IMG/VR virus record: IMGVR_UViG_3300042691_022081
Coordinates: 6,872 to 70,871 of that record
DNA: 64,000 bases
Source of the DNA: a virus
Strand: one strand, 5' to 3'
Positions 24,677 through 64,000 of this stretch are shown here, one piece after another; positions within the stretch are counted from its first letter, which is position 1, and each line of letters opens with the position of its first letter. The notes beneath the pieces were generated by a model, which had not been told where the DNA came from, did no database searches, and saw nothing but the letters and a program-made list of their open reading frames with translations. Position numbers and translations under genes: made by a program.

Positions 24677-25645
24677 ATGAACTTTAACCAAATACCATTC
24701 GAACAAATTGTAAGTTTTGGACAACGTACCATGTTAGATCGTCCGTTGTTTTCTGTAAGTTGGATTCTTGGACGATTTTGTAATTATAATTGTAGCTACT
24801 GTTGGCCATATGCCCGTAGCGACAAATTGGATCACCAACCACTTGAAGTTTACAAATCCACAGTAGACGAGATTAAAAGACAAGCACGGGCCAATGGGTT
24901 TAACCAATTCCATTGGAGTTTTAGTGGTGGCGAACCAACTGCCTATAAACATCTTTTGGATTTAATCAAACACCTAGACGAAAAAGAAAGCAGTTACCAA
25001 AGTGTGCATATGACTACTAATTTGTCGCCAGGAAGTAAATGGTGGAAAAGTTGGTGTGATGCAACTGCTTTGTTACAACGAAGAAGTATTACAGCCAGCT
25101 TCCATGATGAATTTGCAGGAGAACAAGAGTTCGGTGACAAGTGTTTACAATTACAATATGAACTAGTACATGTTACTGTTAATCAAGTTATGGTTCCTGA
25201 AAAGTTTTATGAATTATATGAGCGTATGGCAAGATTTCATAAACGTGGAATCAATGTAACTCTTAAACCACAAAGTGATCTTACTGCTAGTCGTGTAGTT
25301 GATGGCTACACTGATGATATGATTAAACTAATGCAAGAAGGGTTTCCACAAAAATCACAAGGAGAAGACGTTTATCAGATTCGTCTCAACGATGGGGTTA
25401 AAGATTATTACTTTGATCAGGCTGAAAGATTTAATGCTTTTGGATTTAATAAATTTAAAGATTGGACTTGCAATAGCGGTTATCAAAGTGTTATAATAAG
25501 AAGCAACGAAGTTAAAAGAAGTTATAGTTGTCATGATGAACCTCTAGGAACTCTTGAACACTTTGAATTATTTAAGGAACCTAAACGCTGTATTACTCCC
25601 ACATGTGTAAGTTCAGCAGATAGTAAGATACCAAAATGCAAATAG
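24677..25645 (+). CDS. Radical SAM protein with a C-terminal twitch-like region
   Basis: CNYNCSYC, FSGGEPT and C-terminal CNSG...SC...C...C. Confidence 0.88.
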   Translation: MNFNQIPFEQIVSFGQRTMLDRPLFSVSWILGRFCNYNCSYCWPYARSDKLDHQPLEVYKSTVDEIKRQARANGFNQFHWSFSGGEPTAYKHLLDLIKHLDEKESSYQSVHMTTNLSPGSKWWKSWCDATALLQRRSITASFHDEFAGEQEFGDKCLQLQYELVHVTVNQVMVPEKFYELYERMARFHKRGINVTLKPQSDLTASRVVDGYTDDMIKLMQEGFPQKSQGEDVYQIRLNDGVKDYYFDQAERFNAFGFNKFKDWTCNSGYQSVIIRSNEVKRSYSCHDEPLGTLEHFELFKEPKRCITPTCVSSADSKIPKCK

Positions 25646-26229
25646 ATACAGAACATCTACATCATTGGATGCAGGCTATCCGACAAAGTTCAGACCCTAT
25701 ACGGACTATGGATGCATTTTGGTCAGGTCAACTTAAAAGCAAAGAGTGGTTAATTAAAAATTTACGACCACATGTAAAAAAATTTGTGTCAATAGACATA
25801 CACGGAGGTTGGGTTGGAGTATTGGCCAGTATGTTATTCCAAAGCGATGTTCCTGTATCTAATATCCGAAGTATTGATATTGATCCTACTTGTGAACCAA
25901 TTGCCACTAACATGAACAAAATAGAAGAGATGGTTGGAAAGTTTCGAGCTGTAACAGCAGACATGTGTACAGTTCGTAGCGATGCAGATGTTATCATCAA
26001 TACTAGTTGCGAACATATTACACAGGATCAATATGACTTGTGGTTAAGCGGGCATCCTCATAATAGTTTACTAGTTTTACAAAGTAATAATTACAATATC
26101 CCAGAACATGTTCGGATTGCCAAAGACTTGGAAGAATTTAAACAGCAGTGTCACATTAAAGTGCTATGGGCTGGAGAGTTAGAGCTTCCGTTGTATAAAA
26201 GATTTATGGTTATTGGTAAAACGCTATAA
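25636..26229 (+). CDS. Class I SAM-dependent methyltransferase-like protein
   Basis: IHGGWVGV, SIDIDP, TADM and DVIINTSCEH motifs. Confidence 0.7.
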   Translation: MQIDTEHLHHWMQAIRQSSDPIRTMDAFWSGQLKSKEWLIKNLRPHVKKFVSIDIHGGWVGVLASMLFQSDVPVSNIRSIDIDPTCEPIATNMNKIEEMVGKFRAVTADMCTVRSDADVIINTSCEHITQDQYDLWLSGHPHNSLLVLQSNNYNIPEHVRIAKDLEEFKQQCHIKVLWAGELELPLYKRFMVIGKTL

Positions 26230-26896
26230 CTTCTTTAGAGTATTTCTGCATACTTTTTTTAATTAATTCTTGATGTTTTAATTTATCTAAAGATCCAGAC
26301 ATGAATAACATGATTTTATCCTGACCAACAAAATTTGCACCGTGATAATGTTCGTCATTTGAAAAAGCAAAACAGGCTCTATGTTTTGGAATTTCAGGAT
26401 ATATTGGATTACTATCTTGAGTATTGCAAACATAAAAACTTTTATAGTCGTGCTTGGTAAGTAAAATATTATAACGTTTTGGCTCTAGATACAATGCTTT
26501 TGTATCGTCATTTTCTACTAAAGTAGAATCGTAAAGTTCTTCTTTTCCTCGGTCCATATGCGGATTAACTTCAGAGGTTTGCCTAAAAAGTACTGCGTAT
26601 GCTAGTTCTTTAAAAGGCAATTGATCTATAATTGCTGCGATTTCTGGAAATTCTTTATCAAAATTATTTAAATATTTGCCTTTTATGCCAGTATAAACAG
26701 TTTTTGTCCGTATTAATTCTAGCAGTGTAGGAATATCGTGTAATTGATCTTCATTAAGTCGCGCATAAACTGGAACAGTATCCCAGCAATTAGAAATGCT
26801 TTTGTCTAAAAAACTCTGGCGATTACAGTAGTCAATAATCTTTTGTTCATCAGGCAATGCTGTTTCTATATCTATAGGTAAAAAAGCTATTCCCAT
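26210..26896 (-). CDS. 2OG-Fe(II)/AspH-like oxygenase
   Basis: PHMD (HxD) ... HYHGA; similar to 60901-61539. Confidence 0.6.
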   Translation of the reverse strand: MGIAFLPIDIETALPDEQKIIDYCNRQSFLDKSISNCWDTVPVYARLNEDQLHDIPTLLELIRTKTVYTGIKGKYLNNFDKEFPEIAAIIDQLPFKELAYAVLFRQTSEVNPHMDRGKEELYDSTLVENDDTKALYLEPKRYNILLTKHDYKSFYVCNTQDSNPIYPEIPKHRACFAFSNDEHYHGANFVGQDKIMLFMSGSLDKLKHQELIKKSMQKYSKEVIAFYQ

Positions 26897-28062
26897 TATA
26901 GGTCTATATTAAGTAAATCTAGTTTTGTTTTAACAGGGTTTCTATTAAACAAATATCTATTAGGTGGACTGTCTGGCAATACAAGTTTCTGATTTTTCCA
27001 AATATCTCTTCTAATAATTTGATGTAGAAAGTTTGTAATACCGTCAGGCACAAAGTTACACCAAGGTCCACTACGTAACTCTTCCATATCAATGTTAGTT
27101 TCGTCACACCAACTAATCAAACGTACAATCTTATCTTCAATCTTAACCATTACATGATAAATGTTATTGTCTGCTTCGATGATGCGTTCAAAATGTTTGC
27201 CGTTGTCCTTACACCATTGCTCTGCACGTTTGTATAAGTTACTAACAAATGGTTGTTCAGTACTAGCATTACGACCTATCTCTGCACCATTACGGATGCG
27301 GAAGTTTTTAGGAGTCCATGGGTTACTAGTAATCTCGGTTAAGATGTAATCAAGTTCACTAAAGTCCACCATAGTATAACTAATGTAACCTATCTTAACA
27401 TCTTCTCTGTGCATGTTCTCAATAGCACTAACTTGCTTACGTCTTACTGTTTCGTGATCAATGTAACTTGGATGATTAAGACCAATATTAACACCTGCAA
27501 GTCCCGCTTCAACACACTTGTGAGAGAATTCAATATCATTAAAACGTATTCCGTTAGTCATTACACTAACATCTATTGCAGGGTGTAGCCCACGTATTGC
27601 TGTTACCAATTCTGGAAAGTCTTTGCGTAAGGTACTTTCAGCACCAGCGAGGATAATTCTATGTACTCCATCCTCACCCACCGGCATGGCTCGTATTTGA
27701 TCAAGCAATTCTTCTATAGAAGGATCGCGGGTATCGTTTTCTGGTAAATGATAACAATGTGGGCATTCTAAATTACAACGATCACTGCCTTCAATAAGTA
27801 CTCCGCCATTAAAATTAAACTGAGGATTATCCTGAGTATAATACAGGTTAGCGTAAAACTCATAATCAGCTTCAATCATGTGATGACTAACACCGTGTAT
27901 AGGACACGCTTTAGCAATAAACACTTGATTGTCTTTATGATATCGCCACGCAGGAATGTGCCTATGGCACTGATGACAAAGACTTACTGTTTGATCTAAC
28001 AAAGTTCCTTTGATGGATTCTTGTAACCTTTCAATGTTAGATTGATTAAATCCTATAATCAT
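26896..28062 (-). CDS. Radical SAM protein with an N-terminal Zn-ribbon-like region
   Basis: SLCHQC...CPIHG, RCNLECPHCY and MTNG motifs. Confidence 0.85.
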   Translation of the reverse strand: MIIGFNQSNIERLQESIKGTLLDQTVSLCHQCHRHIPAWRYHKDNQVFIAKACPIHGVSHHMIEADYEFYANLYYTQDNPQFNFNGGVLIEGSDRCNLECPHCYHLPENDTRDPSIEELLDQIRAMPVGEDGVHRIILAGAESTLRKDFPELVTAIRGLHPAIDVSVMTNGIRFNDIEFSHKCVEAGLAGVNIGLNHPSYIDHETVRRKQVSAIENMHREDVKIGYISYTMVDFSELDYILTEITSNPWTPKNFRIRNGAEIGRNASTEQPFVSNLYKRAEQWCKDNGKHFERIIEADNNIYHVMVKIEDKIVRLISWCDETNIDMEELRSGPWCNFVPDGITNFLHQIIRRDIWKNQKLVLPDSPPNRYLFNRNPVKTKLDLLNIDL

Positions 28063-29966
28063 AAAGGTCTTCCATCCATCACTGTAGTTGGAGTTGAAAT
28101 GATAGGAATTACAGTTCGTTTGTAAGTTCCTTTAATAAACTTTTCAACATAGGGATTAGTAATGTTAATAATATCAGTTTTTCTTAACCATTTTTCATAC
28201 ATCTGATCCTGTTGATGACTAACGGAAATTCTATCTTTGATTTCGTAAACAACGTGGGCGTTTTCCCATCTATCAATGTCAACACTAGATACTATGCTGT
28301 ACGGGTATTTGTTTTTGTTGTTTTTAATAAATGCTTTTTGCAGCTCTTCAATGCTAGGATCTAAGGCAGATATTTCTCTTCCTATATTGATACCTAAAGA
28401 TATAAAATAATCTGCGTTGTCGTAAATTTCATTGCCACCATAACTTTCTGATAAAGTCAATGCAATTACGTTCCCCCATTTTTCATTACTAGGTATCTCA
28501 CCGTGTGTTAGATAATTTATTAGAATTTCTTCAACATTTTCTAACAAGTGTCTTCCTACAGGATCTGTTTTTAATGCATGATACAATTTATCATAGAATG
28601 TTCTGTAAGACACACCCTTCATATGATATAGATATCTAGATATTAATTGAGTATAACCGCTGTAATGAAATTGACTCATCATCCACGCATAACTTAAACA
28701 GTCAGCTAAATCTTGTCTTGAAGCAGAATCAGTTTCACATACCATGGCTATATCTTCATGACTGTTATCTTCATCGTCCCATTTTCTTTCTTCTAAACTT
28801 CTGTACATATCTCTAGGATAAATTAGTTTAATACCGTATTTGCTTCGATATTCTTCACTGTCCATTTCGCTATTGGGAATAACTGTACATAGATATGTTT
28901 TTATTGAATCGTGTTGACCTAATTCAGTAAGTTTCATTAGACCGTTTATATAAGTTTCTTTTGTTTCTAAAGGTAAGCCAAGGACTAATTCAGTGTAGTA
29001 TCGAATGCCGTATTTTCTGCTTAGTTCATAAACTCTTTCAAGATTGTTTAAGCCCATGTTAATTCTTTTGCTGGCTTCCAGCGTAGGCTCGTGTAGACTT
29101 TGAATAGCTATTTCAAGTCCGTAAGTCCACTCTTGAATAATTTTTTCCATTTCAAAGCAATGTTCATTTAAATTTTTTGCATGATTAAATGTAACACGAC
29201 GTATTTTGCTTCCTGGTGTTTCAACTGCATGTCTAATCATCCACGCTATTTCTACGTCTCGTTCTTTTAAAATTCCGCTATTAGCATCAATAACAAAAAT
29301 CCAATGAATGTTGTGTGTTATAGCCCATTCAATTTCATGTGCTACTCTATCTAAATTAAAAACTTTTAATTTGTTTAGATAATCTGCGCCCCAACCACAA
29401 AAAGTACAATGATAAGGACAACCTCTATTTGTCTCTAACATCATGAACCACATTACATCTGGGTTGTCAGCAATAATTTTATCAAAGAATCCAGTTGTGT
29501 ACGGACTAGGATAATCGGAAATATTTGTTTGACGCGGGTTGTTCCAATAACGATGTATAGGCTCATTATCTACAACCATCTTTAACAATTTAGCCCATGC
29601 TTCTTCGCCTTCACCAAACATAGCAACATCAATAAAATCATGTTTTAACCATGTTTCATTAATGCTAGGCCCACCAAAAACAATTAAACAATTAGGCCAT
29701 CTTTTTTTAATTTTTTTTGCAAGAGATATATTCCAATTATGGTTCCAAACATAAGTGCTAAATCCAACAATATCAGGGTTATCTATTCTGTTTAGTACAT
29801 CTACCTGACGCTCTCGTTTCCAAACAACATCTTTTAAAGTAAAATTGTTTTTTACATATTCAAATTGATTTGCGTATGCCCATATACAGCCCACACTAAA
29901 AGGCAAATAGTGTTCGTTGAGAACACCTGAGGTAATTTCGGGCTGAATCAAGTAGACAGATTTCAT
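28059..29966 (-). CDS. B12-binding-domain (class B) radical SAM protein
   Basis: N-terminal YLPFSVG...GFSTYVWN...VFGGP...GEGE; ETNRGCPYHCTFC; LGLPLET. Confidence 0.88.
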   Translation of the reverse strand: MKSVYLIQPEITSGVLNEHYLPFSVGCIWAYANQFEYVKNNFTLKDVVWKRERQVDVLNRIDNPDIVGFSTYVWNHNWNISLAKKIKKRWPNCLIVFGGPSINETWLKHDFIDVAMFGEGEEAWAKLLKMVVDNEPIHRYWNNPRQTNISDYPSPYTTGFFDKIIADNPDVMWFMMLETNRGCPYHCTFCGWGADYLNKLKVFNLDRVAHEIEWAITHNIHWIFVIDANSGILKERDVEIAWMIRHAVETPGSKIRRVTFNHAKNLNEHCFEMEKIIQEWTYGLEIAIQSLHEPTLEASKRINMGLNNLERVYELSRKYGIRYYTELVLGLPLETKETYINGLMKLTELGQHDSIKTYLCTVIPNSEMDSEEYRSKYGIKLIYPRDMYRSLEERKWDDEDNSHEDIAMVCETDSASRQDLADCLSYAWMMSQFHYSGYTQLISRYLYHMKGVSYRTFYDKLYHALKTDPVGRHLLENVEEILINYLTHGEIPSNEKWGNVIALTLSESYGGNEIYDNADYFISLGINIGREISALDPSIEELQKAFIKNNKNKYPYSIVSSVDIDRWENAHVVYEIKDRISVSHQQDQMYEKWLRKTDIINITNPYVEKFIKGTYKRTVIPIISTPTTVMDGRPL

Positions 29967-30026
29967 ATATAATTTCAGTTCTTTTAAGACTTGATATTTA
30001 TCGGGTTAAATAATCGCAAAGAAAAT

Positions 30027-31196
30027 ATGAAACATCCTAAATTATTATATCCATTCGTTGTAAATTCAAATTGGTCAAAAACCCGTGTGATTGAATCTTA
30101 CAGTCAGTTTAGTTACACAGATAGCGGAAAAGATATTTTAGATCTAAGTCTTGGAAATGCTGGCTGTTTTATGCTAGGATTTAATAGAAAAGACATAATA
30201 GATTACGTCAGTGAACAGATGCTTAAAAACCCGTTTGTAAGCGGGGAGTATATGACTACCAATGAAGCTGTCTTAAATTTATCTGAAAAGCTATTTGATC
30301 TGAGCAATGGCTACAAATCGTTGTTTACCTTATCTGGAAGTGATGCTGTTGAAAGTGCTATTAAATTAGCAACAATGTACAACCCAGACAGGCAAAAAAT
30401 CATAGGCTTCCAAAGTTCTTATCATGGAAGTACTTTTTTAGTTTCAAGTATAGGCTCTATTCCTGAGATGACTCAGCATTGGGGTAAACACATAAATTGT
30501 TGTGTACTTCCTTCTTTTGATATAGAACTTATAAGAAAAGAAATAAGTGATGCAAATTGTATAGTTATAGAATCATGCTCTTGGAATAACGGTTTAGATA
30601 CGTTGTCTGATGAATTTTGGAAAGAACTTAGAGCTTTATGTACAGAAAATAATGTAGTTTTAATTATAGATGATATTGCCATGTGCGGCGGCAAGACAGG
30701 AAAATTCTTTGGGTTTAATCCATATGCTAATCCAGATATTTTTTGTTTAGGTAAATCGTTTTCAGGAGGATATTTTCCTTTAAGTGCCTGCCTTGTAAAT
30801 GATAAAATTTATCAGTCTGTTAAGGATAAATTTTTAGCTCACGGATTTACATATTCTTTTTCTCTAAGCGGTGTATATTGTACCTTAAAATACTTAGAAA
30901 TTTTAGAAAAAGAAAACCATTATGAAAATTTTGAAAGCACTCTTGCTAGAGCAAAATTTGTAATGGATAATTTAGTTAGTAATGGATCTGTGTTAAGTTA
31001 TAAAAATTATGGTTTAGTTTTTAAATTAACAATTAAACCTACGGCAGAAGAAGTTTTTTATAATAATGGTATTAATGTTGGAGTATGGAATAGTAAAAGT
31101 GATACATCAATATTACTGATTGTTCCGTTAAATGCATCCTCTGAATATTTTAATAAATTGCAAACTAGATTACAGAACGCCTGTTCCCTTTCCTAG
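30027..31196 (+). CDS. Class-III PLP-dependent aminotransferase
   Basis: SGSDAVESAIK, SYHGST, LIIDDIA..GGKTG and PDIFCLGKSFSGGYFPLSA (PLP Lys); likely start at 30027. Confidence 0.88.
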   Translation: MKHPKLLYPFVVNSNWSKTRVIESYSQFSYTDSGKDILDLSLGNAGCFMLGFNRKDIIDYVSEQMLKNPFVSGEYMTTNEAVLNLSEKLFDLSNGYKSLFTLSGSDAVESAIKLATMYNPDRQKIIGFQSSYHGSTFLVSSIGSIPEMTQHWGKHINCCVLPSFDIELIRKEISDANCIVIESCSWNNGLDTLSDEFWKELRALCTENNVVLIIDDIAMCGGKTGKFFGFNPYANPDIFCLGKSFSGGYFPLSACLVNDKIYQSVKDKFLAHGFTYSFSLSGVYCTLKYLEILEKENHYENFESTLARAKFVMDNLVSNGSVLSYKNYGLVFKLTIKPTAEEVFYNNGINVGVWNSKSDTSILLIVPLNASSEYFNKLQTRLQNACSLS

Positions 31197-32232
31197 AAAC
31201 ATCTAGCGTAAGGCAATGTATCCCAGCTTCCCAAAACATTCCGTGTCGTTGCTTGACAACATGGCAATTAACATTATGTCTTGCTAGTAGTTCAAAAACT
31301 TTAGGTTGTTCTGTTGAAAAAATTATATTATTAGAATCTACCACAAGAACATTTGTTTCAAAAGCTACATCTTGTGCATAACCCTTCCATTCGAGAAACC
31401 ACTGTTCTAACCACTCAAGTGAACTTTGATCCTTTATGCTATGAGTTTTTTGAATGAAGTTTTGATAATTAAATGGTTCAAACATACCGTCAAGCTCTAT
31501 AATATTTTTGTTACGCAATACCTCAGGGACCCAAGTTTCATTCATGCAAATAACAGTATTATCATCTATCATATAAAACCCATGGTCAATATGACCCCAG
31601 TTATCTACTTTAGTATTATCGTTGTTAATTATAGTTGCATCACAGTTTCTTTTCATCCATTCTAAACCTAGTTGCGTACCAGGTCCAGCATTATTAGTAA
31701 TCAATGCATCTCCACATTTAAACATAGTTGCGGTATGCCACAGAATTTTATCTTTGTACAAATTACTATAAATCGTAGGGCCTTCCACATACCATTTATA
31801 TTTGTCTGTAAAGTTAGTCAATACCGGCGGAGGTTGACTGAGCCAATTATATCCTTGTTTAAATAGATCAGCAAATATTTCATAATAATGTAAACTATCT
31901 ATATATCTGTCTGGCATACTTGTGTAAGTTTGATATAAAGTATTCCCATAGGCAAAATATTGATCTCGAGGAACAACAGGGTTAGTTGCCATTAAAACTT
32001 TAAATGTTGGAAATTCGACTAATGCAGGTAAATTATAAACAACAGGACGGTATACTGTTACACCTAACTTTGTTAGGGTATTTGCAAGATTATCTAAATC
32101 TTCTTTAGTTTCTCGTAAAATTTGATTTAAAAGTTCTCTTGCATCGCCTGTTATTTGCCAAGACTCGGGTACTTGTGTGTAGCAATTGCCTACTATAATT
32201 TTTTCTAAAGGATCCCAGTTGGTGTAAATCAT
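31165..32232 (-). CDS. Amidinotransferase (glycine / inosamine-phosphate amidinotransferase family)
   Basis: WDPLEKIIVG, PRD, GHID, ETNVL and C-terminal GIHCLTLD (catalytic Cys). Confidence 0.85.
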   Translation of the reverse strand: MIYTNWDPLEKIIVGNCYTQVPESWQITGDARELLNQILRETKEDLDNLANTLTKLGVTVYRPVVYNLPALVEFPTFKVLMATNPVVPRDQYFAYGNTLYQTYTSMPDRYIDSLHYYEIFADLFKQGYNWLSQPPPVLTNFTDKYKWYVEGPTIYSNLYKDKILWHTATMFKCGDALITNNAGPGTQLGLEWMKRNCDATIINNDNTKVDNWGHIDHGFYMIDDNTVICMNETWVPEVLRNKNIIELDGMFEPFNYQNFIQKTHSIKDQSSLEWLEQWFLEWKGYAQDVAFETNVLVVDSNNIIFSTEQPKVFELLARHNVNCHVVKQRHGMFWEAGIHCLTLDVSRKGNRRSVI

Positions 32233-35760: not shown

Positions 35761-35818
35761 TTATTTTTTTGGTAGTTTTTTTGTCAATAAATACTTATCT
35801 AAAAGAAAACCAACGTTT

Positions 35819-44590: not shown

Positions 44591-44614
44591 GGTTTTCTCC
44601 GATACTATGTATAT

Positions 44615-46248: not shown

Positions 46249-46322
46249 GAATTTCTAACTGACATCAGGGTGCCTATAAATATAGATGATATTTATGCAC
46301 CTTTCTTTCTAGATAGAAAATT

Positions 46323-55373: not shown

Positions 55374-55415
55374 GAAATATTTAACCTTATAATAGTAGCA
55401 TATAAATATTTCATG
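55371..55415. promoter_or_regulatory. Divergent late-promoter pair forming a perfect 13-bp inverted repeat that includes both start codons
   Basis: CATGAAATATTTA (55371-55383) and TAAATATTTCATG (55403-55415). Confidence 0.7.
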
Positions 55416-56078: not shown

Positions 56079-56623
56079 AATTATATGTGGGTAATTGCAA
56101 TTCTCATTTTAGCTGTAATGATTTAATATCTGAAATAAATCAGCACACAGTTGAACCAAATCATGGCCATTTAGAATTAGAACCAAATAATCCATTTTAT
56201 GAAGAAAGTGTATATCAAACTAACTTATTAAAATCAGTTGGCTATGATGAAAATGTTGTGGAGTATAGACACTATCAGTCAGGAATACACTTTAGTTTAA
56301 ATTATTCTACAATGTTAGGAGAAATAACAAATTGCACTCCTATTATGTGTTGGGTGAGTGAAATAAGGCCAGGCAAGTGTACGCCATGGCACTGGGATAT
56401 AAATCCGTGGGAACACGAACATAAAAAGTTAGGCACACTAATAAGATATTTTATGTTTGTAACACCACCCGCTCCTGGGCATTTGTTTGTAACAGAAGAC
56501 GATGCCTACTACAATGAACCGCAAGGATCGATATATCAGTATGCAGACATACACTCTTGGCATGCAGGATCTAATGTTGGACTTTTGCCTAAAATGTTAT
56601 TAACTCTTACAGGATATAAATAA
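56075..56623 (+). CDS. Short 2OG-Fe(II)/AspH-like oxygenase
   Basis: PGKCTPWHWD...WHAGSNVG. Confidence 0.72.
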   Translation: MKLYVGNCNSHFSCNDLISEINQHTVEPNHGHLELEPNNPFYEESVYQTNLLKSVGYDENVVEYRHYQSGIHFSLNYSTMLGEITNCTPIMCWVSEIRPGKCTPWHWDINPWEHEHKKLGTLIRYFMFVTPPAPGHLFVTEDDAYYNEPQGSIYQYADIHSWHAGSNVGLLPKMLLTLTGYK

Positions 56624-56637
56624 ATTTAGGATATATT

Positions 56638-57192
56638 ATGAAAAACTTTATTGGAAATTGCTCATCTGTTATTGATTGTGAAGCACTAATAGCTGCGTGT
56701 GAGTTGGTTGAAGGAAATACTATACTAGCTCCACTTGAAATTAATAAAGACGATGTATTTTATAAAGAAGAGTCTAAAGAAACTTTTGATTTATTAGAAA
56801 CTGTTTATAAAAATGTTACTTCAGTTAAGTTTAAACATTATTATCCAGGTCAACATTTTGATCAAAAAATAGTAGACGAGTTAGGAAAATTTTGTGGAGT
56901 TGAACCACTTGGTAGTTTTGTTAGTAAGGTTGAACCAGGCTTTTGTGTACCATTACATAAAGACATTATGAATAATTATAAAGACTTATACTTAAAAAAT
57001 AAGTTGCAAAGATTTGTAATTTTTTTATCTAAGCCGTCTTTTGGTGCAGGATTCATTTTAGAGGATGAAATATTCTATTTAGAAGAGCAGGGAAATACTT
57101 ATAAGTTTCCTGATCCACATTCATGGCATGCTGGTTTCAATGTGGGAACTAAATCTAAACACCTCATTACTTTCACAGGCTTTTTGCCTTAA
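56638..57192 (+). CDS. Short 2OG-Fe(II)/AspH-like oxygenase
   Basis: PGFCVPLHKD...WHAGFNVG. Confidence 0.72.
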   Translation: MKNFIGNCSSVIDCEALIAACELVEGNTILAPLEINKDDVFYKEESKETFDLLETVYKNVTSVKFKHYYPGQHFDQKIVDELGKFCGVEPLGSFVSKVEPGFCVPLHKDIMNNYKDLYLKNKLQRFVIFLSKPSFGAGFILEDEIFYLEEQGNTYKFPDPHSWHAGFNVGTKSKHLITFTGFLP

Positions 57193-58752
57193 AAATTCTA
57201 ATAGAGGAATAAAATAAGTTTCCTCTATTTGTTGTTTCATTAATTCTTTAATATTATCGCTTCCAAAATGTTGATATAAATCTTCTTTTTTAGTAAAAGA
57301 CATTAGAGTATTAAAATCATATTTTGGTAAATTAATACAACTAATATAAAAAAAGTTTCTATAAAACTGAATATGGCTATCTAATTTTTGTTGCCACTTC
57401 ACGGCTATTTCAGTTGCTTTTTCAAACGTATCTATATCAGTCCCGTCCTTTTTAATCCATCGCCAAGGAACATCTGGATAAGGAAATTCATATCCATACT
57501 TTTCAGCTTCAATTTCAAAAGCAGCATTAAATCTATATTTTGTAAAATCTGTATGTTTTATTATACGTAACGGAGTTGTGTTTATGTGACCTACTGGGCG
57601 ATCTGGCCTGTCAAAGTAGGCACAGCTTTTTTCAAAATCTGCAATATTGTCTTTAGGAAGGCCGCATATTAATCCGGTCATTATCCAAACATCGTGTCCC
57701 CATACCTCAGCACATTTTTCTAAAGTATCTGTAATACGTTTAGGATCCATGCCTTTACCTATAACTTTGCCAGCTTCTCGATTTAATGTTTCTATACCAA
57801 AGTAAACTTCTCTAATTCCTATATCTTTGGCAAGTTGTATATGTTCTGGATTATTAACTATTATGTCTAATCTCATATAACACCAAAACGCAGGTTTAAA
57901 AGGAAGTCTTGCTACTACACGTTTGACCATTTCTAGTTTTTCTGTACTATCATTAAATGTATCGTCTACTATAGTGTATTTCCATGTTCCCCAACGATTC
58001 CAATTGTCTAAAAGTTCGTTATAAAGACACTCTTCAAATTTAATATAGTCTTTAACATTTTTTTGACCTATAAGCGGGAATGAACAAAACTTACAATTAA
58101 ATCTACAACCTCTTCCTACTTCTAATAAAAGTGTTTCGCTAGGCAATATAAAAGATTCTGGCTCATAGGAAATGTTAGATCTTCTAAAATCCCAAGAGGG
58201 TGACTGTGCTTTTTTATCGTGATCAATAATTCTGTTCCACAATCTTCTTGGACCTTTTTTAAGACTTTGTAGATATTCTACAATCATAGTTTCTGCATGT
58301 CCTATAAACACATTATCAACGCCTAATGTATTAATGTACATAAAGGCTTTCGCGCCGCCTAAAATAATTTTTGTTCTTGGATTTACAGATTTAATTTTAT
58401 CAGTATAAAATTGGACATTGGGCCCTCCAAATTCCATACTTAAACTGTTTAATGAATTTTCTGTGTTTGGATTAAATCGCATGGCTGGTTTGCTTGGTTC
58501 TCTATGACTAACAGTTCCGTCTGGCAAAATAAAAGGAAACCATGTAGTTGAAAAACCAACAGCTAGAGTGTTTTCTCCCACTGATAGTTCAATTATTTCA
58601 CTATATCTTTTAAAATTAATATAGTTTGCAAAATCAACAACTAAAACAGAGTACCCATGCTCTCTCAATTCAGTTGCTATACGATGAGAGCCGCTTGCTC
58701 TTGAATAAGTTTCAAGATCTGGCATATCTCCAAATAGTATTACATCGTACAT
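57121..58752 (-). CDS. B12-binding-type radical SAM protein
   Basis: GSHRIATELR, GRGCRFNCKFC, VDDTFND and ICGLP; related to the 32831/34288 pair. Confidence 0.85.
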   Translation of the reverse strand: MYDVILFGDMPDLETYSRASGSHRIATELREHGYSVLVVDFANYINFKRYSEIIELSVGENTLAVGFSTTWFPFILPDGTVSHREPSKPAMRFNPNTENSLNSLSMEFGGPNVQFYTDKIKSVNPRTKIILGGAKAFMYINTLGVDNVFIGHAETMIVEYLQSLKKGPRRLWNRIIDHDKKAQSPSWDFRRSNISYEPESFILPSETLLLEVGRGCRFNCKFCSFPLIGQKNVKDYIKFEECLYNELLDNWNRWGTWKYTIVDDTFNDSTEKLEMVKRVVARLPFKPAFWCYMRLDIIVNNPEHIQLAKDIGIREVYFGIETLNREAGKVIGKGMDPKRITDTLEKCAEVWGHDVWIMTGLICGLPKDNIADFEKSCAYFDRPDRPVGHINTTPLRIIKHTDFTKYRFNAAFEIEAEKYGYEFPYPDVPWRWIKKDGTDIDTFEKATEIAVKWQQKLDSHIQFYRNFFYISCINLPKYDFNTLMSFTKKEDLYQHFGSDNIKELMKQQIEETYFIPLLEFLRQKACESNEVFRFSSHIETSMP

Positions 58753-59555
58753 TAATAAGATTCCAAATGTTCTATACCTAAGCGTTTACGAAAATCTTCT
58801 GTAAATTTTCCGTCAATACGTAAACTATAACTTTGTTCCATGATACGTTCGCCGCCGTGCCAATCTACATCGTTCCACCAAGCAGCTCTAGTGTTAAGAT
58901 ATGTTTTATCTTTGGTCTCTGGATCCCAAAGGTACATAGCCTTCTTTGTGTTAGGACGAACATGTATAAATTCATTACGATGGGGTGTAACAACATCGAT
59001 GCCGTTCTTAGCATCTAAGTCGCGATGTTCAAACGGAATACCGTCTGCTTCACAGTGAAAAAATATAACACGGCCAATCTCTTGGAATATAGTTCCTACC
59101 ATAGATTCTACCCATTTAACTACATTAGGAAAGTATTCAGCTTCTGGAGTTAGTTTACGTGGTGCTGTTCTATCATCCCAGCTACCTTCTTCCCACAAGT
59201 AATAGTAAATGTATGGATCATATGCACCCATTGCCATCTTTAGATAACGAGTAAATTTATTACGTTGTTGAAAGTTTTTAAAATCTGTAGGCATTAACTT
59301 TATGCCAGCTTGATATAAAGGATCGTCTTTAGGCAGTTCCATGAACTCATCCATAGACTGATAGATAGGTTTCCAACTAAGTTTGTAACTCATGTTTTCA
59401 AATGAAAAGCCAGGCTTCATCCATGTGCCTTCTTTAGCATATTCACGTGCTAGGGCAAAACCTGTTAGTATCTCAGGTTGCAATTTTTGAAATTGATCCA
59501 TATCAATATATGTTTCCATATCAAAATAGGATTTACCATTTATTCCTTTAATCAT
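58752..59555 (-). CDS. 2OG-Fe(II)-type oxygenase-like protein
   Basis: FEHRD...DWHGG...SLRIDG. Confidence 0.6.
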   Translation of the reverse strand: MIKGINGKSYFDMETYIDMDQFQKLQPEILTGFALAREYAKEGTWMKPGFSFENMSYKLSWKPIYQSMDEFMELPKDDPLYQAGIKLMPTDFKNFQQRNKFTRYLKMAMGAYDPYIYYYLWEEGSWDDRTAPRKLTPEAEYFPNVVKWVESMVGTIFQEIGRVIFFHCEADGIPFEHRDLDAKNGIDVVTPHRNEFIHVRPNTKKAMYLWDPETKDKTYLNTRAAWWNDVDWHGGERIMEQSYSLRIDGKFTEDFRKRLGIEHLESY

Positions 59556-60237
59556 ATATCCTCTTAGCTTTTTCTATAAAATCATCATTGTAGTTAGATC
59601 GAAAACTTTCAAAACATAACATCTGTAATTTATCTAAAGGTTCTTTACCTTCCCAACTAATACCCATTTGTTCAATCTGTTCACGCATTATATCCTGTCT
59701 AGTGCTGTATATATGACTAGCATGATCTGCAATGCTGATTGGGCCTTCGTTACTGCTATAAGTGAAAAAGTAATTTATACTTTTTAATTGGCCGTCTACT
59801 ACAAAATAACTGCTAGGATGCATACTGTATTTGTACCAACCTCTTTCTTTATGAGCCTGTATAATTTTTAACATCTGCTCTTGCCAGTCTGGGACTATAT
59901 TATCATAGTTTGATGTATCACAACCGGCTCTGTTCCAAAAATCACTACCGTCTATTCTTAAATATATTTTCCTTTCAGGAATGTTTACTTCTAAAATTTC
60001 AGGTACCATTGATGGATTATGGTAAGCCATGTTACTTAAAAAATGTAATTCTCTTTGAAATTTTTCAGCCATCAAGTTTGAGTCAACTATTTCGTTGTGT
60101 CCTTTATGATACTCTGTATCATTATAGTACCATTGTACAAACGTTTTTTTGTCTTCGCTAATAAGGCTAGTATAAATTAAATTATTTCTACATAGCCCTA
60201 CACCTGGCACATCGTTATAGTAATAATTATATTTCAT
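59548..60237 (-). CDS. Protein-kinase/APH-like fold protein (degenerate motifs)
   Basis: FQRELHFL...VPEILEV...IYL...SMHPSSYFVVDGQLKSINYF resembles a kinase C-lobe but lacks canonical HxD/DFG. Confidence 0.45.
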   Translation of the reverse strand: MKYNYYYNDVPGVGLCRNNLIYTSLISEDKKTFVQWYYNDTEYHKGHNEIVDSNLMAEKFQRELHFLSNMAYHNPSMVPEILEVNIPERKIYLRIDGSDFWNRAGCDTSNYDNIVPDWQEQMLKIIQAHKERGWYKYSMHPSSYFVVDGQLKSINYFFTYSSNEGPISIADHASHIYSTRQDIMREQIEQMGISWEGKEPLDKLQMLCFESFRSNYNDDFIEKAKRIYD

Positions 60238-60901
60238 TTAGTTTGTTCCAAATGTACTCAGCTATTATTTTTTGTGTTAATTTGCCTGGATGCTGATCGT
60301 CCCTTGCATAATCTATAAACGGATAACACGGCAAATTAAGTGATATATGCTCATCCGGCATATATTGGAATTCTATAGTTTTTTTATTTTTAGTTATCTG
60401 TTTAACATTGTAATATGATTTTAAATTTACATCTTTAATAGTGTTATTTAACAGCATAGTTTTATATTTCTCATAACTTTCTGGCCAAAGTTTTTTAGAT
60501 CCAAAATGGTTATTATGGCTTTGTGAATCTTCAAGACAAAACGGCATCCATAGTACAGCACCAGGAAAGTTTATTTCATAACTTTGCCATCTATCAAAAT
60601 TTGGCCAGGCTATAACAATAGCTAAAGGTTCATATTTTTTAAGTAACTTAGTTAGTGTTTGTTCAACCATCATAGGACCAGAACCTGGATGGCCTAAATT
60701 TATAACTTTCTTGTTTGATAAACTAGATAGTTGATAAGGTGCTGTTTCATAATGTTCTAATCCTGTACCAAACACATGACTACAACCTAAAAACCATATA
60801 CTGTTATTATAATCTTTAAAAACAGATTTTGTTTCTTTGTATTGACGATCAAACATACCTACAGTATGTTTAAATTGTGCCTTTAATCTTTTAAAATACA
60901 T
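60227..60901 (-). CDS. SGNH/GDSL-like protein
   Basis: FLGCSHVFG, NLGHPGSG and ARDDQHPG motifs. Confidence 0.7.
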   Translation of the reverse strand: MYFKRLKAQFKHTVGMFDRQYKETKSVFKDYNNSIWFLGCSHVFGTGLEHYETAPYQLSSLSNKKVINLGHPGSGPMMVEQTLTKLLKKYEPLAIVIAWPNFDRWQSYEINFPGAVLWMPFCLEDSQSHNNHFGSKKLWPESYEKYKTMLLNNTIKDVNLKSYYNVKQITKNKKTIEFQYMPDEHISLNLPCYPFIDYARDDQHPGKLTQKIIAEYIWNKLNEI

Positions 60902-61539
60902 TATATTATAATAACTTTATCTGCAAATTTTTTCAAGCTGCGTTCCAATAAAGCTTCGTGTTTTTGTTTGTTCATTATACCTACTGTACTTAAAAGTATT
61001 TTAGTCCTATCAGTTGGATCTGCCGCATGTTGAATATTACTGTTGTTAAAAGCAAAACATCGATACTTGTTATCAATTTTTGGCCATATCTTTTTACCGT
61101 TATGTACAAAATGAAAAGTATTGTAAGCTGGGTCAGTGATATAGATAATATATCGTCTTGGCTCTGTCATATTATAGTCTGCATCCTGGTGAGGAGGTAT
61201 AGTTCCTATCTGCATAATAAAGCCGCTGGTTCCTATTTGATCAAATGGTAATTCTCTTATACACTTTGCTAAACCTGGAAATTTTCCCTCAAATCCTGGA
61301 TGAAAGAAAAGTCCAGCATTTTCTATTGGCTCGCGTTCCTTTGACCATTTTAACCATGCATCATATGTTCGCCAATCACTTGGTTGTTCTCTCAAGGCTA
61401 CATAACACCATTCGTGTCGACCTTCTGCATACTCCCAATAATCTGTGTCTGTAATTTTATGAGAATGAAACCAGTCAATAAGTTCTTGCTCGTCTGGCAT
61501 GTCAAATTCTATATCGATTGGAGTATATATTATAGTCAT
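60901..61539 (-). CDS. 2OG-Fe(II)/AspH-like oxygenase
   Basis: PPHQD...FAFNN..IQHAAD; paralog of 26210-26896. Confidence 0.65.
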   Translation of the reverse strand: MTIIYTPIDIEFDMPDEQELIDWFHSHKITDTDYWEYAEGRHEWCYVALREQPSDWRTYDAWLKWSKEREPIENAGLFFHPGFEGKFPGLAKCIRELPFDQIGTSGFIMQIGTIPPHQDADYNMTEPRRYIIYITDPAYNTFHFVHNGKKIWPKIDNKYRCFAFNNSNIQHAADPTDRTKILLSTVGIMNKQKHEALLERSLKKFADKVIII

Positions 61540-62168
61540 GATATTTCACCAGTAAGTTGCATTAATGTTGGTAAATCAGACCTTTTAAATCTAAACACTA
61601 ACCCTACTCTATCACTGTTACTAAAATTTTCAGTTTCGTGTTCTATTATAGTATCAACAAGATAAACACTGCCATCTGCTGGTATCCCAAAATCTTTACG
61701 ATTGCCTAAAGTATCCCAAAATTTAAATGTGGCACCTGGAGAATCATATATTGGTATATGGGCTGTGTATTCATCGCCTTGGTCAACGTGTCTACTTACT
61801 TTACCAGTTGGCGGCTGAACAACTAGACTCCATCGATAGGCATAAGGAATAAGTTCTTGTAATTTAGTAACTAAACCAAATGCTAGTTCAGTGTTTCGAT
61901 AATATGTTCTTTCATGTGTGCTTATGTTGTATGGAGGGCATGGTATAGTCAAGTCTACTAAATTACTTTGTATTGCCCAACCGTAAGGAAGTATACAACC
62001 TGGACCATTTGATATAATACGATTGTACCACTCTTCTGTAATTTCGTGACCGTACCTATCCCACTTCCAACACAAGTGATCGTATTTGGTTGTCAATGTA
62101 TGATAATACTCTTTTAAACTATCTAGTTTTATAGTAAAATTAAGTTTTGTAATCGCAGCATCTAGCAT
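61536..62168 (-). CDS. AspH-like oxygenase
   Basis: SRHVD...HIPI...PADGSVYLVDT..EHETEN....R. Confidence 0.72.
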   Translation of the reverse strand: MLDAAITKLNFTIKLDSLKEYYHTLTTKYDHLCWKWDRYGHEITEEWYNRIISNGPGCILPYGWAIQSNLVDLTIPCPPYNISTHERTYYRNTELAFGLVTKLQELIPYAYRWSLVVQPPTGKVSRHVDQGDEYTAHIPIYDSPGATFKFWDTLGNRKDFGIPADGSVYLVDTIIEHETENFSNSDRVGLVFRFKRSDLPTLMQLTGEIS

Positions 62169-62207: not shown

Positions 62208-62822
62208 ATGCAAAACAGATATGATTTAACTGATACACATATAATTGTTTACTACCAATCAAATTTAGAATTTGAAAAGGTACGAGAACTATGCTTGGAA
62301 GAAGATAATTGGTTGCGTTATAATTATACCAAAGAAAATTTAGTAGTTGAGCAACATACAGGGTACGGAGTAGTTTACCAAACTAGCACTGGTAAACCTA
62401 TGGTAATGGGCGGCGTATTTAATGATGGGCGTTATCCAAAGAACGTGGCTAAAATGATTAATAGGTTATACACATTTCCAGACTTTCGAATGAAGCATAC
62501 GGATATGACAGACGGATTTCGTGTAACGTGTAGTTTAATAGACAAATTAATTTCTATAAACAATTACGATTTGTATCTTATTACAATGCAAAATCGTAAC
62601 AGAGGTGGAAAGCGTTGGTGGGACACATGGGTTAAACATATGGACATCGCCAGCAAAGGTAAATGGACATTAGGTTATGGGTACTTACAAACTTGTCCGT
62701 GGCCCGTACAAAAATGTTGGCAAAACTTTGTGTACTTAGAAACAACACCAGGAAGTTTTCAGAAATGGAATCCAAATACAATAACTGACCAGGAATGGTC
62801 ACAACTAGAGGAAGGAACATGA
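62208..62822 (+). CDS. Hypothetical protein, possible GNAT-like fold
   Basis: MVMGGV...INRLYTFPDFR resembles GNAT motif A. Confidence 0.45.
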   Translation: MQNRYDLTDTHIIVYYQSNLEFEKVRELCLEEDNWLRYNYTKENLVVEQHTGYGVVYQTSTGKPMVMGGVFNDGRYPKNVAKMINRLYTFPDFRMKHTDMTDGFRVTCSLIDKLISINNYDLYLITMQNRNRGGKRWWDTWVKHMDIASKGKWTLGYGYLQTCPWPVQKCWQNFVYLETTPGSFQKWNPNTITDQEWSQLEEGT

Positions 62823-63589
62823 GTTATAATCTTAAAGTAAGATTAATACAGTTAGTTAATTTTATTGCCAGCATTATTGGTGTCTGGTACGCAATCTCTT
62901 TAGGGCAATACTCTTGGTTCTTTGTTGCGCTAGCATCTTGGTTTGTTATAGGACATATTAGCGCAATTATTACATTACACAGAATGTTAACTCATCGTAG
63001 TTTTAAAACATGGCCGTGGCTTGAAAATGTACTAAGTTTTATCAGTATCTATTCTACTATTGGTCCTAGCATTGCTTGGGTAGGATTACATAGGATGCAC
63101 CATGCCAAGTCTGATGGTTCCGGAGATCCGCACTCGTCCTATGTTGATGGAAAATTTTCTTACTGGGCTGCATTTAAGGTATGGGTTGGTTATGATTGGC
63201 ACGTTGAAGCTATTTCGATGGCTTATGTAAAAGATCTAATTCGTAAGCCATTGCATAAATGGATTTTTAATAATTATTTTAAAGTTATTTTTATTACATC
63301 TGCTATTTTAATTTTAATTGATCCTATGTTGTGGGTATTTTTATATGCGTTGCCTGCAACCTTAACAGTACACGTAATTGGCTTAGTTAATGTATTGGGT
63401 CATAGACACGGGTATAGAAATTATGAAACTAAAGACTATAGTACTAACAGTTGGATTGCAGCCGTTATTGCATTAGGAGAAGGTTGGCATAATAATCACC
63501 ATGGTAATCCTGGTGCATGGTACGCAGGAAAAAAGTGGTGGGAGCTAGACCCAATGGGATGGATCATTAAACTAATTAAAATTGACTAA
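62819..63589 (+). CDS. Membrane fatty-acid (delta-9-like) desaturase
   Basis: His boxes HRMLTH, HRMHH and GEGWHNNHH; DPHS; TM segments; WWELDP. Confidence 0.92.
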   Translation: MSYNLKVRLIQLVNFIASIIGVWYAISLGQYSWFFVALASWFVIGHISAIITLHRMLTHRSFKTWPWLENVLSFISIYSTIGPSIAWVGLHRMHHAKSDGSGDPHSSYVDGKFSYWAAFKVWVGYDWHVEAISMAYVKDLIRKPLHKWIFNNYFKVIFITSAILILIDPMLWVFLYALPATLTVHVIGLVNVLGHRHGYRNYETKDYSTNSWIAAVIALGEGWHNNHHGNPGAWYAGKKWWELDPMGWIIKLIKID

Positions 63590-64000
63590 TGGGTACCTTT
63601 TATATACAACGACCTGAACTAGCATACATTCACGTGCCTCGTACAGGAATGGCTATGAAGAAAATTATTTCAGATTGGCTTAAAGTTAACTTTGAAGTAA
63701 ATGATACAGATCCTTGGATGATTGATCATCCGCATTTAGGAACGGTCAAGGATCATTATCCTTCTGCTAAAACTATGACCGTTGTGCGTAATCCTTGGCA
63801 ACGTGTGTATAGTTTATATCGAAAAGTAAGTAAGGAAGGATATTGGCTAGATTGGAATAACATGACTTTGTTGGACCTTAAGCCTATTAATGAATGGGTA
63901 GCTGATTACTGTAACCCAGATATTCCGTTTGAGTTTCCTCGATGGTTTAATCGTTTTACAAATCAAATTGATTTTATTCACGTAAATGATGAATGGGTTG
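63589..64000 (+). CDS. Sulfotransferase (family 2-like), truncated by the window end
   Basis: Not in the ORF track. ATG at 63589 reads MGTFYIQRPELAYIHVPRTGM...VVRNPWQRVYSLY, matching the 5'-PSB and 3'-PB PAPS-binding motifs. Confidence 0.75.
   Translation, partial: MGTFYIQRPELAYIHVPRTGMAMKKIISDWLKVNFEVNDTDPWMIDHPHLGTVKDHYPSAKTMTVVRNPWQRVYSLYRKVSKEGYWLDWNNMTLLDLKPINEWVADYCNPDIPFEFPRWFNRFTNQIDFIHVNDEWV

Follow-up and report, generated by a model that had tools for sequence, protein, structure and literature searches.

A variable island of radical SAM and oxygenase tailoring enzymes in a very large freshwater phage, with a sugar decoration as its possible target

In this study, we analysed a 64,000-nucleotide stretch of viral DNA (the window; bases 6872-70871 of the IMG/VR contig IMGVR_UViG_3300042691_022081) and, within it, an island of ~39 kb (24677-63999) packed with genes for radical S-adenosylmethionine (SAM) enzymes, oxygenases and other tailoring enzymes. 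Judged from sequence comparison, the DNA comes from an uncultured, very large freshwater phage with a genome of ~370 kb. The island joins a recurring core to swappable cassettes. The predicted core consists of three kinds of radical SAM protein (family NF033640, the w24677/w51839 type and the w47639 type), a GT-A-fold protein, a PP-loop protein, cupin hydroxylases and a kinase-like protein; the putative cassettes encode B12-type radical SAM enzymes, an aminotransferase, an amidinotransferase, methyltransferases, SGNH-like proteins, a desaturase and a sulfotransferase. The reading that we prefer, at about an even chance, is that the island is a late-expressed, hypervariable block of soluble tailoring enzymes beside tail-fibre/baseplate genes, of the host recognition cluster (HRC) type, that edits a sugar decoration.

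Radical SAM enzymes and the conserved core

A preliminary description, made from the letters of this DNA, had put the island at about 45 consecutive genes. We counted 46 packed, non-nested open reading frames (ORFs) of at least 80 amino acids (aa) between 24677 and 63999, arranged in 11 units of alternating strand with only five intergenic gaps of more than 40 bp. Thirty-three of the 46 fall into an enzyme superfamily, eight carry a motif only and five are without assignment, including w37044, which does not look like an enzyme; Pfam searches relaxed to E 10 on ten ORFs without assignment gave nothing usable.

All 12 of the radical SAM proteins described earlier were confirmed by PF04055, ten of them above the cut-off, w47639 exactly on it (29.5 bits) and w28059 below it (23.6 vs 29.5). 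Each radical SAM protein has exactly one CX3CX2C motif, which no other listed ORF of the window has. A thirteenth member, w8504 (8504-9880), lies outside the island. BLAST divided these proteins into four B12-type enzymes (28059, 32831, 34288 and 57121), four N-twitch proteins (8504, 46323, 48697 and 52750), a group of 303-388 aa (24677, 26896, 50091 and 51839) and w47639, which stands alone. Three of the radical SAM proteins, searched as single sequences against the PDB, returned nothing useful.

With the full NF033640 model (cut-off 170 bits), w46323, w48697 and w52750 scored 277.6, 395.6 and 337.4 bits, respectively. The scan covered these three, and w8504 is placed in the N-twitch family by BLAST alone (E 1e-13 to 5e-30 to the three island members); it also has a PHROG radical SAM match and the motif CNFKCAYC. 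The three island proteins carry CNLKCxMC at residues 129, 162 and 143, four N-terminal Cys columns are invariant, the PF13186 SPASM matches sit N-terminally, and the N-twitch profile aligns its N-terminal region, weakly (E 0.015), to the twitch region of BtrN. Thus, of the earlier statement that most of the other radical SAM proteins have twitch/SPASM Cys clusters, the cluster itself was borne out for 46323, 48697 and 52750, but the Cys domain is N-terminal. NF033640 is a large family (3906 proteins at E <= 1e-10 for one query) and a sequence family without an assigned reaction, so that membership names w46323, w48697 and w52750 without explaining them.

The four B12-type proteins are mutual BLAST relatives, and w32831 and w34288 are paralogues that are 60% identical. 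An N-terminal PF02310 match is present in each: w28059 scored 38.7 bits (cut-off 32.1), and w34288 (31.1), w32831 (19.7) and w57121 (17.2) fell below it. The B12-binding type is therefore suggested for four proteins at the level of a match, but only for w28059 above the Pfam cut-off.

When IMG/VR was scanned with one of the N-twitch proteins, 25 loci were obtained, with identities of 62-74% for 24 of them; the core genes in these loci are 46-87% identical to those of the island. Recurring in most loci are w24677, w25636, w47639, w48697, w50091, w51839, w52750, w54005, w55359, w58752, w59548 and the small cupins. All 25 loci are matched by w48697 (median 66%), 24 by w47639 (orthologues of 34-69%), 17 by w58752 (40-89%) and 15 by the w24677/w25636 unit (64-83%), which is also found at 51-54% in loci labelled Bdellovibrionota. 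The B12-type enzymes, the aminotransferase, w36409 and others are missing or replaced among the relatives. In one relative (L012), the genes from w24677 to w63589 occupy ~17 kb, without the cassettes of 26210-45049; this compact version contradicts the notion of one fixed 39-kb pathway.

The core also occurs outside these phages. Scanning one genome per prokaryote species with the N-twitch alignment gave 234 relatives, of which 80 were kept, mostly from Bdellovibrionota metagenome-assembled genomes and several on contigs of megabase size; an N-twitch gene is present in 80 of these 80 loci and at least two copies in 66. In three of the eight Bdellovibrionales loci mapped (ten were clustered), two GT2 genes precede an N-twitch pair, stops and starts overlapping, in an apparent operon. 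A 916-kb Bdellovibrionia contig carries at least nine N-twitch paralogues together with genes like w47639, w51839, w54720, w31165 and w45037, and since this array adjoins rpoD and a Ser/Thr kinase gene, it is chromosomal. The KVP40-like Vibrio phage K566 has four clustered N-twitch-like paralogues. The K566 and Bdellovibrionota arrays are only 20-35% identical to the N-twitch proteins of the island. Separately, contigs binned as Parcubacteria (1.27 Mb), Rickettsiales, Crocinitomicaceae and Neisseriaceae (L049, L050, L047/L052, L051) have arrays whose closest likeness is to the phage genes, at 42-59% identity and with up to seven N-twitch copies; these may be mis-binned phage DNA or real transfers.

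Sugar-transferase folds, late-promoter motif and tail-fibre neighbours

The AlphaFold model of w45037 (45037-46248; pLDDT 76) has a GT-A-like N-terminal half. In VIA-align, residues 9-232 matched the glycosyltransferase domain of LH3 at Z 10.7 (root-mean-square deviation 3.1, 158 aligned), the PBCV-1 capsid glycosyltransferase A64R at Z 10.6 and STIV A197 at Z 10.4, with Z of at least 8 for 228 of 999 chains; Foldseek gave nine PDB matches at E <= 1e-3, and those viral (BFVD) matches that bear a name are mostly GT2, GT25 and FkbM-methyltransferase proteins. The protein has no Pfam match even at E 10. The model thus indicates that the N-terminal domain has a GT-A nucleotide-sugar-transferase fold, and therefore that a putative sugar transferase is present in the island, where none had been noted before. 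In three relatives (L001, L002 and L012), the w45037 orthologue lies directly upstream of PP-loop and N-twitch genes on the same strand.

Another GT-A-like protein of ~230 aa, which is not encoded on this contig, stands directly upstream of the w24677 or w8504 orthologue in G001-G003, L004, L005, L009 and L022, and is also found in several loci labelled bacterial. Its model (pLDDT 88) gave 47 Foldseek PDB matches at E <= 1e-3, those listed being all GT-A glycosyltransferases; a family-profile PDB search with it found nothing significant. In G001-G003, GT-A-like and SDR genes flank the w24677/w25636 orthologues, and PF01370 epimerase/dehydratase genes (130-140 bits) and a half-size DegT gene lie inside the island in these three of 26 related records. 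The comparison of gene order with relatives that had been proposed thus did place GT-A, SDR and DegT genes beside the same radical SAM genes. It had also been suggested that the product is a modified glycan or protein decoration; of the two, the glycan gains comparative support from the GT-A, SDR, DegT and GT2 neighbours. GT2, GT1 and TGT families were found in none of five contigs each (G000-G004), which are all fragments, so that these counts are not evidence of absence.

As to the time of expression, TATAAATA, which we take to be the T4 late promoter with ATAAATA as its core, occurs at 46275-46282, in the 74-bp gap upstream of w46323. The window has 11 copies of ATAAATA against 10-80 in permutations of the same letters, so that the motif is depleted; its sites include 46275-46282, 35787, 56616, 7199, 14189, 30001 and 46296. 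For seven of these 11 copies, an ORF start in matching orientation follows within 60 bp downstream. The starts concerned are those of w28059 (35 bp), w35819 (32 bp), w45037 (48 bp), w46323 and w56638 (22 bp) in the island and those of the tail-fibre-like w5725 (26 bp) and of w13434 outside it. In composition-matched permutations, the share upstream of starts never exceeded ~20% (2/10). The corresponding counts in the relatives G001-G004 are 7/8, 5/8, 9/11 and 10/14, and in G001 the motif also precedes large ORFs beside a giant gene of 4472 aa. This pattern supports co-expression of the island with structural genes. The late expression proposed earlier is thereby upheld at the level of a motif, found upstream of five island units and a tail-fibre-like gene.

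In the relative G006, a sulfotransferase-like gene (205 aa; of its counterpart w63589, 137 aa remain in the window) is the last of the enzyme genes and is followed by a 486-aa tail-fibre-like protein (L130:7725-9185) and by small ORFs in common with the right flank of G004. Because this gene closes the island in G006, the end of our island probably lies no more than a few hundred bases from that of the contig. The preliminary description had the island running on past the window, but the contig ends there; since the window covers bases 6872-70871 of a 70,871-bp contig without terminal repeats, the window end is the contig end. The 486-aa protein is 36% identical (E 2.7e-11) to w37044 (331 aa; 37044-38039), and the island-flanking proteins of both G006 and G004 (L045:13247-14404) have GNVTG-type repeats and are related to w37044. 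A search of w37044 against a phage collection gave no match, a family-profile PDB search nothing significant, and none of its 26 database relatives has a Pfam domain. We conclude that w37044 is probably not an enzyme but a relative of tail-fibre-like proteins, and it is a candidate virion protein or acceptor. The HRC-type arrangement can be read from a giant ORF and w5725 on the left, tail-fibre-like flanks in G004 and G006, the related w37044 inside and the variable gene content. As a separate observation, the C-terminal 100-190 aa of the G006 flanking protein match cyanophages only, at 42-56% identity (12 of 13 records, Synechococcus/Prochlorococcus phages of very different genome sizes), a hint that the lineage infects picocyanobacteria.

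Substrate, acceptor and alternative explanations

That the edited substrate is a sugar or glycan is a proposition that we regard as evenly balanced. The enzymes would act on the sugar either as a nucleotide-sugar or already on the glycan, with a logic like that of aminoglycoside and rare-sugar pathways; BtrN, StrB1, GenK and KanJ have their roles in aminoglycoside pathways. In such a scheme, twitch-type radical SAM enzymes would oxidise, epimerise or dehydrate C-H positions, the aminotransferase would aminate a keto intermediate and the amidinotransferase would convert the amine to a guanidino group. Methyl groups would be added by the B12-radical SAM and SAM methyltransferases and hydroxyl groups by the cupin/2-oxoglutarate (2OG) enzymes; SGNH, kinase-like and sulfotransferase proteins would add or remove ester groups, and the GT-A-fold protein would transfer the sugar to its acceptor. 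The acceptor that we consider more probable than the host envelope is a virion protein, a tail fibre for instance. With a single exception, the island proteins look soluble, and no flippase-type or export gene was seen in the island.

Several observations weigh against a sugar substrate. The GT-A fold is common to nucleotidyltransferases, with GlmU at Z 9.7-9.8, tied within 1 Z, and no invariant DxD motif appears in the w45037 alignment. No Pfam glycosyltransferase, nucleoside diphosphate (NDP)-sugar or DegT family is found on this contig, the sugar genes of the relatives are limited to one close group (G001-G003), and GT2 gave three sub-threshold matches of 14-15 bits in the 25 related records. 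The other type of Bdellovibrionales locus adjoins Lon, patatin and class-V aminotransferase genes with no sugar genes, and on the 916-kb contig seven of ten neighbours scanned are without Pfam match, the rest being a weak 2OG enzyme, a protein kinase and RpoD. The content of the island is so variable among relatives that a single pathway is doubtful, and the timing of its expression is read from a motif only. Literature searches found no published reaction of NF033640, nor any published account of what N-twitch radical SAM arrays do, as judged largely by titles and abstracts, supplements excluded.

A more specific version of the sugar reading would have the N-twitch arrays, together with the B12-methylases, the amidinotransferase and the cupins, make a guanidino, C-methylated aminoglycoside-like sugar that the GT-A-fold enzyme puts on tail fibres or the capsid late in infection, with a toolkit common to giant phages, T4-like phages and Bdellovibrionota. 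We consider this version rather doubtful. If it were true, the phage would encode a virion glycome that tunes host recognition or shields the virion, and NF033640 would be the first radical SAM family dedicated to glycan tailoring in paralogue arrays.

An unlikely alternative, with a lower chance than that version, is that the enzymes edit a virion protein directly, in the manner of proteusins and other peptides that are made on the ribosome and modified after translation (RiPPs), with a tail fibre or w37044 as target and no sugar involved. The island lies among tail-fibre genes, and w37044 runs in the same direction as a 2OG oxygenase and a methyltransferase, behind ATAAATA. Peptide maturases are numerous among the weak NCBIfam neighbours of the radical SAM proteins, and hydroxylases of the PF05118 type classically act on proteins. 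However, the five gaps of more than 40 bp offer no room for a small precursor gene, in line with the earlier remark that no obvious RiPP precursor is present. Pfam scans of the 46 ORFs gave no PqqD/RiPP recognition element (RRE)-type domain, peptidase or exporter, although a distant RRE could escape such scans. The amidinotransferase, the class-III aminotransferase and the PP-loop and GT-A-fold proteins are more in keeping with small-molecule or sugar chemistry, and the relatives add SDR, DegT and GT-A genes.

Of similarly small probability is that there is no single product, the island being a recombination hotspot that gathers independent auxiliary cassettes for different host metabolites, as has been proposed for the hypervariable regions of T4-like marine phages. 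The strongly different content among relatives, the compact ~17-kb version in L012 and the 11 alternating transcription units speak for such a hotspot, and the parts of two published accounts used here describe interchangeable radical SAM modules (Timms et al., 2010; PMC2853527) and radical SAM cassettes added within the variable host recognition cluster (Zaragoza-Solas et al., 2020; PMC7029224). Yet a core of ~10 genes is stable, from 13 of 25 loci for w59548 to 24 or all 25 for several others, and parts of it remain together across Bdellovibrionota. The units have a promoter-like motif in common, and tandem paralogue arrays point to the elaboration of one chemistry.

Hypermodification of DNA or nucleotides, by which a 7-deazaguanine derivative or a hypermodified pyrimidine would protect the phage DNA, seems very unlikely. 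A QueD-like 6-carboxytetrahydropterin synthase gene (5141-5623; PHROG E 5.7e-37) lies beside the tail-fibre-like w5725, w54005 joins a PP-loop to a QueC-like C-terminal Cys motif, and the amidinotransferase-like gene w31165 is present. In the Campylobacter phage CP220, too, a QueD-like gene stands next to the radical SAM module, and Firehammervirus DNA has been reported to carry 7-deazaguanine, a point that counts for such a modification. The scores count against it: w54005 reached 19.1 bits against a QueC cut-off of 22, and at its C-terminus only, the QueD-like protein scored 35.7 against 89 for TIGR03367, and no QueE exceeded its cut-off. TGT/DpdA was found in none of the five fragments G000-G004. 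The same core stands in Bdellovibrionales chromosomes behind GT2 genes, and four or five genes, not 46, would suffice for the purpose.

Equally improbable is a free aminoglycoside- or aminocyclitol-like small molecule that the infected cell would make as an inhibitor, for example of competing phages or of host translation, with no covalent decoration. In terms of the roles of these families, the gene set does mirror aminoglycoside tailoring, with a BtrN-type twitch enzyme, a GenB-type aminotransferase, a StrB1-type amidinotransferase, GenK-type B12-radical SAM C-methyltransferases, a kinase-like protein and a 2OG oxygenase. But there was no sign of a cyclitol synthase, resistance gene or exporter, no match exceeded the family cut-off for any aminoglycoside enzyme, and the tail-fibre position and late-type promoter fit a virion or surface role better. 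A phosphonate product, considered on account of weak PhpK-like matches (PMC8942020), was dropped because no phosphoenolpyruvate mutase or related family appeared in any Pfam scan.

Gene order, source phage and related systems

From left to right, the island begins with the core plus-strand unit 24677..26229, which encodes the radical SAM protein w24677 (322 aa; PF04055, 49.3 bits; motif CNYNCSYC) and w25636 (197 aa). Two methyltransferases had been named previously; w36409 is one (PF13649, 42.8 bits), whereas w25636 has the look of one by motif only and no Pfam or PDB match, a family-profile PDB search included. The minus-strand unit 26210..29966 contains w26210 (HxD motif only), w26896, which combines a zinc ribbon (PF23545, 50.4 bits) with a radical SAM domain (PF04055, 59.3 bits), and the B12-binding radical SAM protein w28059, which is KedN5-like by resemblance only (NF033712, 157.4 bits, far under the cut-off of 700). 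The class-III (BioA/ArgD-type) aminotransferase (29991..31196, plus strand) was confirmed by PF00202 at 151.6 bits; it has no NCBIfam match over cut-off and is missing from the 25 related loci.

The proteins w31165, w32229 (a weak 2OG oxygenase by Pfam) and the B12-type w32831 and w34288 make up the minus-strand unit 31165..35760. The amidinotransferase-like w31165 has no Pfam or NCBIfam match, and the call gains weaker support from its ESM Atlas neighbours, which include clusters named inosamine-phosphate amidinotransferase (score 0.93; rank 24, with PF02274 in 92% of members), from structure neighbours at TM 0.79-0.81 and from a tblastn match to CP220 gp086 (98% coverage, E 2e-20), which is annotated as pentein superfamily. 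The next unit on the plus strand (35819..38039) encodes the 2OG-FeII_Oxy_5 protein w35819 (PF13759, 55 bits; TIGR02466, 75.4 bits, above cut-off), the SAM methyltransferase w36409 and w37044.

A long minus-strand unit (38172..46248) has five tandem small cupin paralogues (38972, 40300, 40854, 41378 and 41913; BLAST E 1e-19 to 1e-38), along with the SGNH-like 39501 and 42614, the nitroreductase 43913, which was verified by PF00881 (26.6 bits vs 23.5), the two-domain w45037, and 38172, 43342 and 44615 without assignment. By NF033640 and PF04055, the core radical SAM operon on the plus strand (46323..51062) consists of the N-twitch genes w46323 and w48697 alternating with w47639 and w50091. On the minus strand, 51049..55574 encodes the SGNH-like w51049, the radical SAM w51839, the N-twitch w52750, the PP-loop/QueC-like w54005 and the Asp/Asn-hydroxylase-like w54720; the PP-loop call has weaker support, from SGGADS (the PP-loop SGGxDS) with a C-terminal CxxCxxC.

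The cupin-type oxygenase-like w55359, w56075 and w56638 form the plus-strand unit 55359..57192. They are followed on the minus strand (57121..62168) by the B12-type w57121 (PF04055, 62.2 bits), w58752, the kinase-like w59548, the SGNH-like w60227, w60901 and the hydroxylase-like w61536; the kinase-like call again has weaker support, its family profile matching the protein kinase TTK in the PDB at E 6e-4. The last unit (62208..63999, plus strand) has w62208 without assignment, the fatty acid desaturase-family w62795, for which PF00487 at 68.3 bits confirms the earlier name, and the sulfotransferase-like w63589. The last of these is a weak call (PF13469, 18 bits vs a cut-off of 27) for a gene cut by the contig end. 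The four SGNH-like proteins (39501, 42614, 51049 and 60227) likewise remain weak or motif-only, the best Pfam E being 0.023.

About 16 oxygenases had been counted in the preliminary description. Some 12 of these are supported, and three or four are motif-only. Five have a Pfam match, clear for 35819 and 54720 (PF05118, 40.4 bits) and weak for 32229, 41378 and 61536 (PF05118, 19.1 bits). Six more are BLAST paralogues of 41378 in a seven-member small-cupin family, and the w55359 family aligned to the cupin alignment in hhalign at 95% probability (E 4e-8). The HxD...H triad is invariant in the nine-member cupin alignment. The motif-only candidates are 58752 (HRD...H), 26210, 60901 (HQD) and 43342; hhalign to cupins gave a probability of 10% for the family of 58752 and of 5% for that of 26210 and 60901, and a family-profile PDB search with w58752 found nothing significant.

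To the left of the island, a structural flank on the minus strand (1..7173) comprises the start of a giant ORF, an endonuclease, the QueD-like gene and the tail-fibre-like w5725 (PHROG). The giant ORF (contig bases 2-8269, that is, window 1-1398 and upstream; minus strand) has at least 2756 aa and is cut by the contig start. It gave short local matches only, to 43 cyano-, pelagi- and marine-phage records (by name, Synechococcus 25, Prochlorococcus 10, Marine 4, Cyanophage 3 and Pelagibacter 1), the genes among the matches listed being annotated as baseplate, tail-fibre, structural or hypothetical; in relatives, the corresponding neighbourhood has giant ORFs of 2480 and 4472 aa. The thirteenth radical SAM gene, w8504, forms a minus-strand unit (8504..10701) with its upstream partner w9871, 15 kb outside the island. 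In G001, a GT-A-like protein stands upstream of the w8504 orthologue instead of w9871; an equation of the two was rejected, as they are unrelated. Two unannotated flank proteins (13434-14162 and 22616-23281) are paralogous (25% identity over 183 aa, E 2e-11).

That the DNA is that of a very large phage, as had been proposed, agrees with the PHROG matches, the 25 IMG/VR relatives and the CheckV estimates of 19-24% for contigs of 71-89 kb. The matches in the left 24 kb are to an endonuclease, a tail-fibre-like protein, an ATP-dependent DNA ligase, a ClpP-type prohead protease, a metallophosphoesterase and the QueD-like protein. CheckV completeness is 19% for the contig and 21-24% for four relatives of 83-89 kb, which puts the genome near 370 kb; one island protein has close homologues on contigs of up to 353 kb, and relatives of 262-353 kb are on record. 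When window 1-24000 was compared with the phage collection by megablast, there was no match, the phage ligase is at most 35% identical to any record, and no isolate phage is close. Near-identical DNA to window 44001-54000 (68-99% of sampled words) occurs in 20 public runs from 14 studies, labelled freshwater, lake-water or 'fungus' metagenome, and four of these runs may be the source of the contig; no RNA run is among those listed.

A chimeric assembly is argued against by synteny of flank and island in G004, where left-flank genes matching those of the window precede an island of ~37 kb and then small ORFs. Logan contigs from four runs covered all 30 bins of window 15001-35000; among the pieces listed, none spans the left edge of the island (24459-24585), which is neutral on contiguity there. 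In the divergent gap at this edge, we also noted a tRNA-like element (24487-24600, minus strand) with an acceptor-like stem, a GGTTCGAATCC T-arm and a 3' ACCA. ARAGORN found no tRNA in it, with introns allowed or not, and the best Rfam match was tRNA-Sec at 19.8 bits against a threshold of 47. Loose ends of public contigs from other runs lie near it, at 24464-24526.

Three published systems invite comparison, and none of the papers, in the parts used here, assigns a product (PMC2853527; PMC7029224; PMC7824862). The Campylobacter phages CP220 and CPt10 have radical SAM genes and a putative glycine amidinotransferase in interchangeable modules (Timms et al., 2010; PMC2853527). In the part of that account considered, they resemble the island in their many radical SAM genes (11-12 per phage genome) and a pentein-type amidinotransferase. 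By annotation, the CP220 module has five radical SAM genes followed by two nucleotide-diphospho-sugar-transferase-domain proteins and a PAP2 phosphatase. The amidinotransferase of this module (gp086) is homologous to w31165, and in both CP220 and this contig a QueD-like gene lies near radical SAM genes. The module has, however, 10-12 genes compared with 46 in the island, and B12-type radical SAM genes and tandem cupin arrays, present in the island, are not annotated in the CP220 stretch inspected. A search with the N-twitch protein w52750 found no Campylobacter phage at E <= 1e-5, and one with the w24677 type found, among Campylobacter phages, CP21 only (two records, E 1e-5).

The HRC of pelagimyophages and cyanomyophages, according to the sections used of its description, is hypervariable, non-syntenic and 34-45 kb long, lies between VrlC and gp14 in T4-like phages of ~140-250 kb, and carries glycosyltransferase genes, joined in some of the genomes by radical SAM cassettes; an Asp/Asn beta-hydroxylase belongs to the core of those phages, and no radical SAM genes were reported in their freshwater group (Zaragoza-Solas et al., 2020; PMC7029224). 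As far as those sections go, the island is like the HRC in being large and non-syntenic, in a structural region adjoining a giant structural gene and tail fibres, and unlike it in that Pfam recognises no glycosyltransferase and that radical SAM and oxygenase genes are far more numerous. The likeness is drawn from tail-fibre neighbours and variability rather than from a VrlC-gp14 position, in a genome of ~370 kb. A cyanophage cluster of 2OGFeDO/cupin hydroxylases, carbamoyltransferases, a halogenase and methyltransferases has been predicted to decorate capsular polysaccharide or to make a secondary metabolite (Iyer et al., 2021; PMC7824862). Like the island, it is carried by a phage and combines tailoring enzymes that hydroxylate and methylate; the part of that paper used here mentions no radical SAM protein, whereas no carbamoyltransferase or halogenase was found in the island.

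In summary, publications since 2010 have described phage islands with many radical SAM genes and have attached no product, substrate or phenotype to them, and the island described here, with 12 radical SAM genes in 39 kb, is among the largest of its kind. The same core genes link giant freshwater phages, KVP40-like Vibrio phages, Campylobacter phages and Bdellovibrionota. Cultivable carriers of such clusters exist, so that the question is directly testable. If the island does edit a sugar, its product would be a chemically extreme glycan on virions or host surfaces, with a bearing on host range, on competition between phages and on new radical enzyme chemistry.

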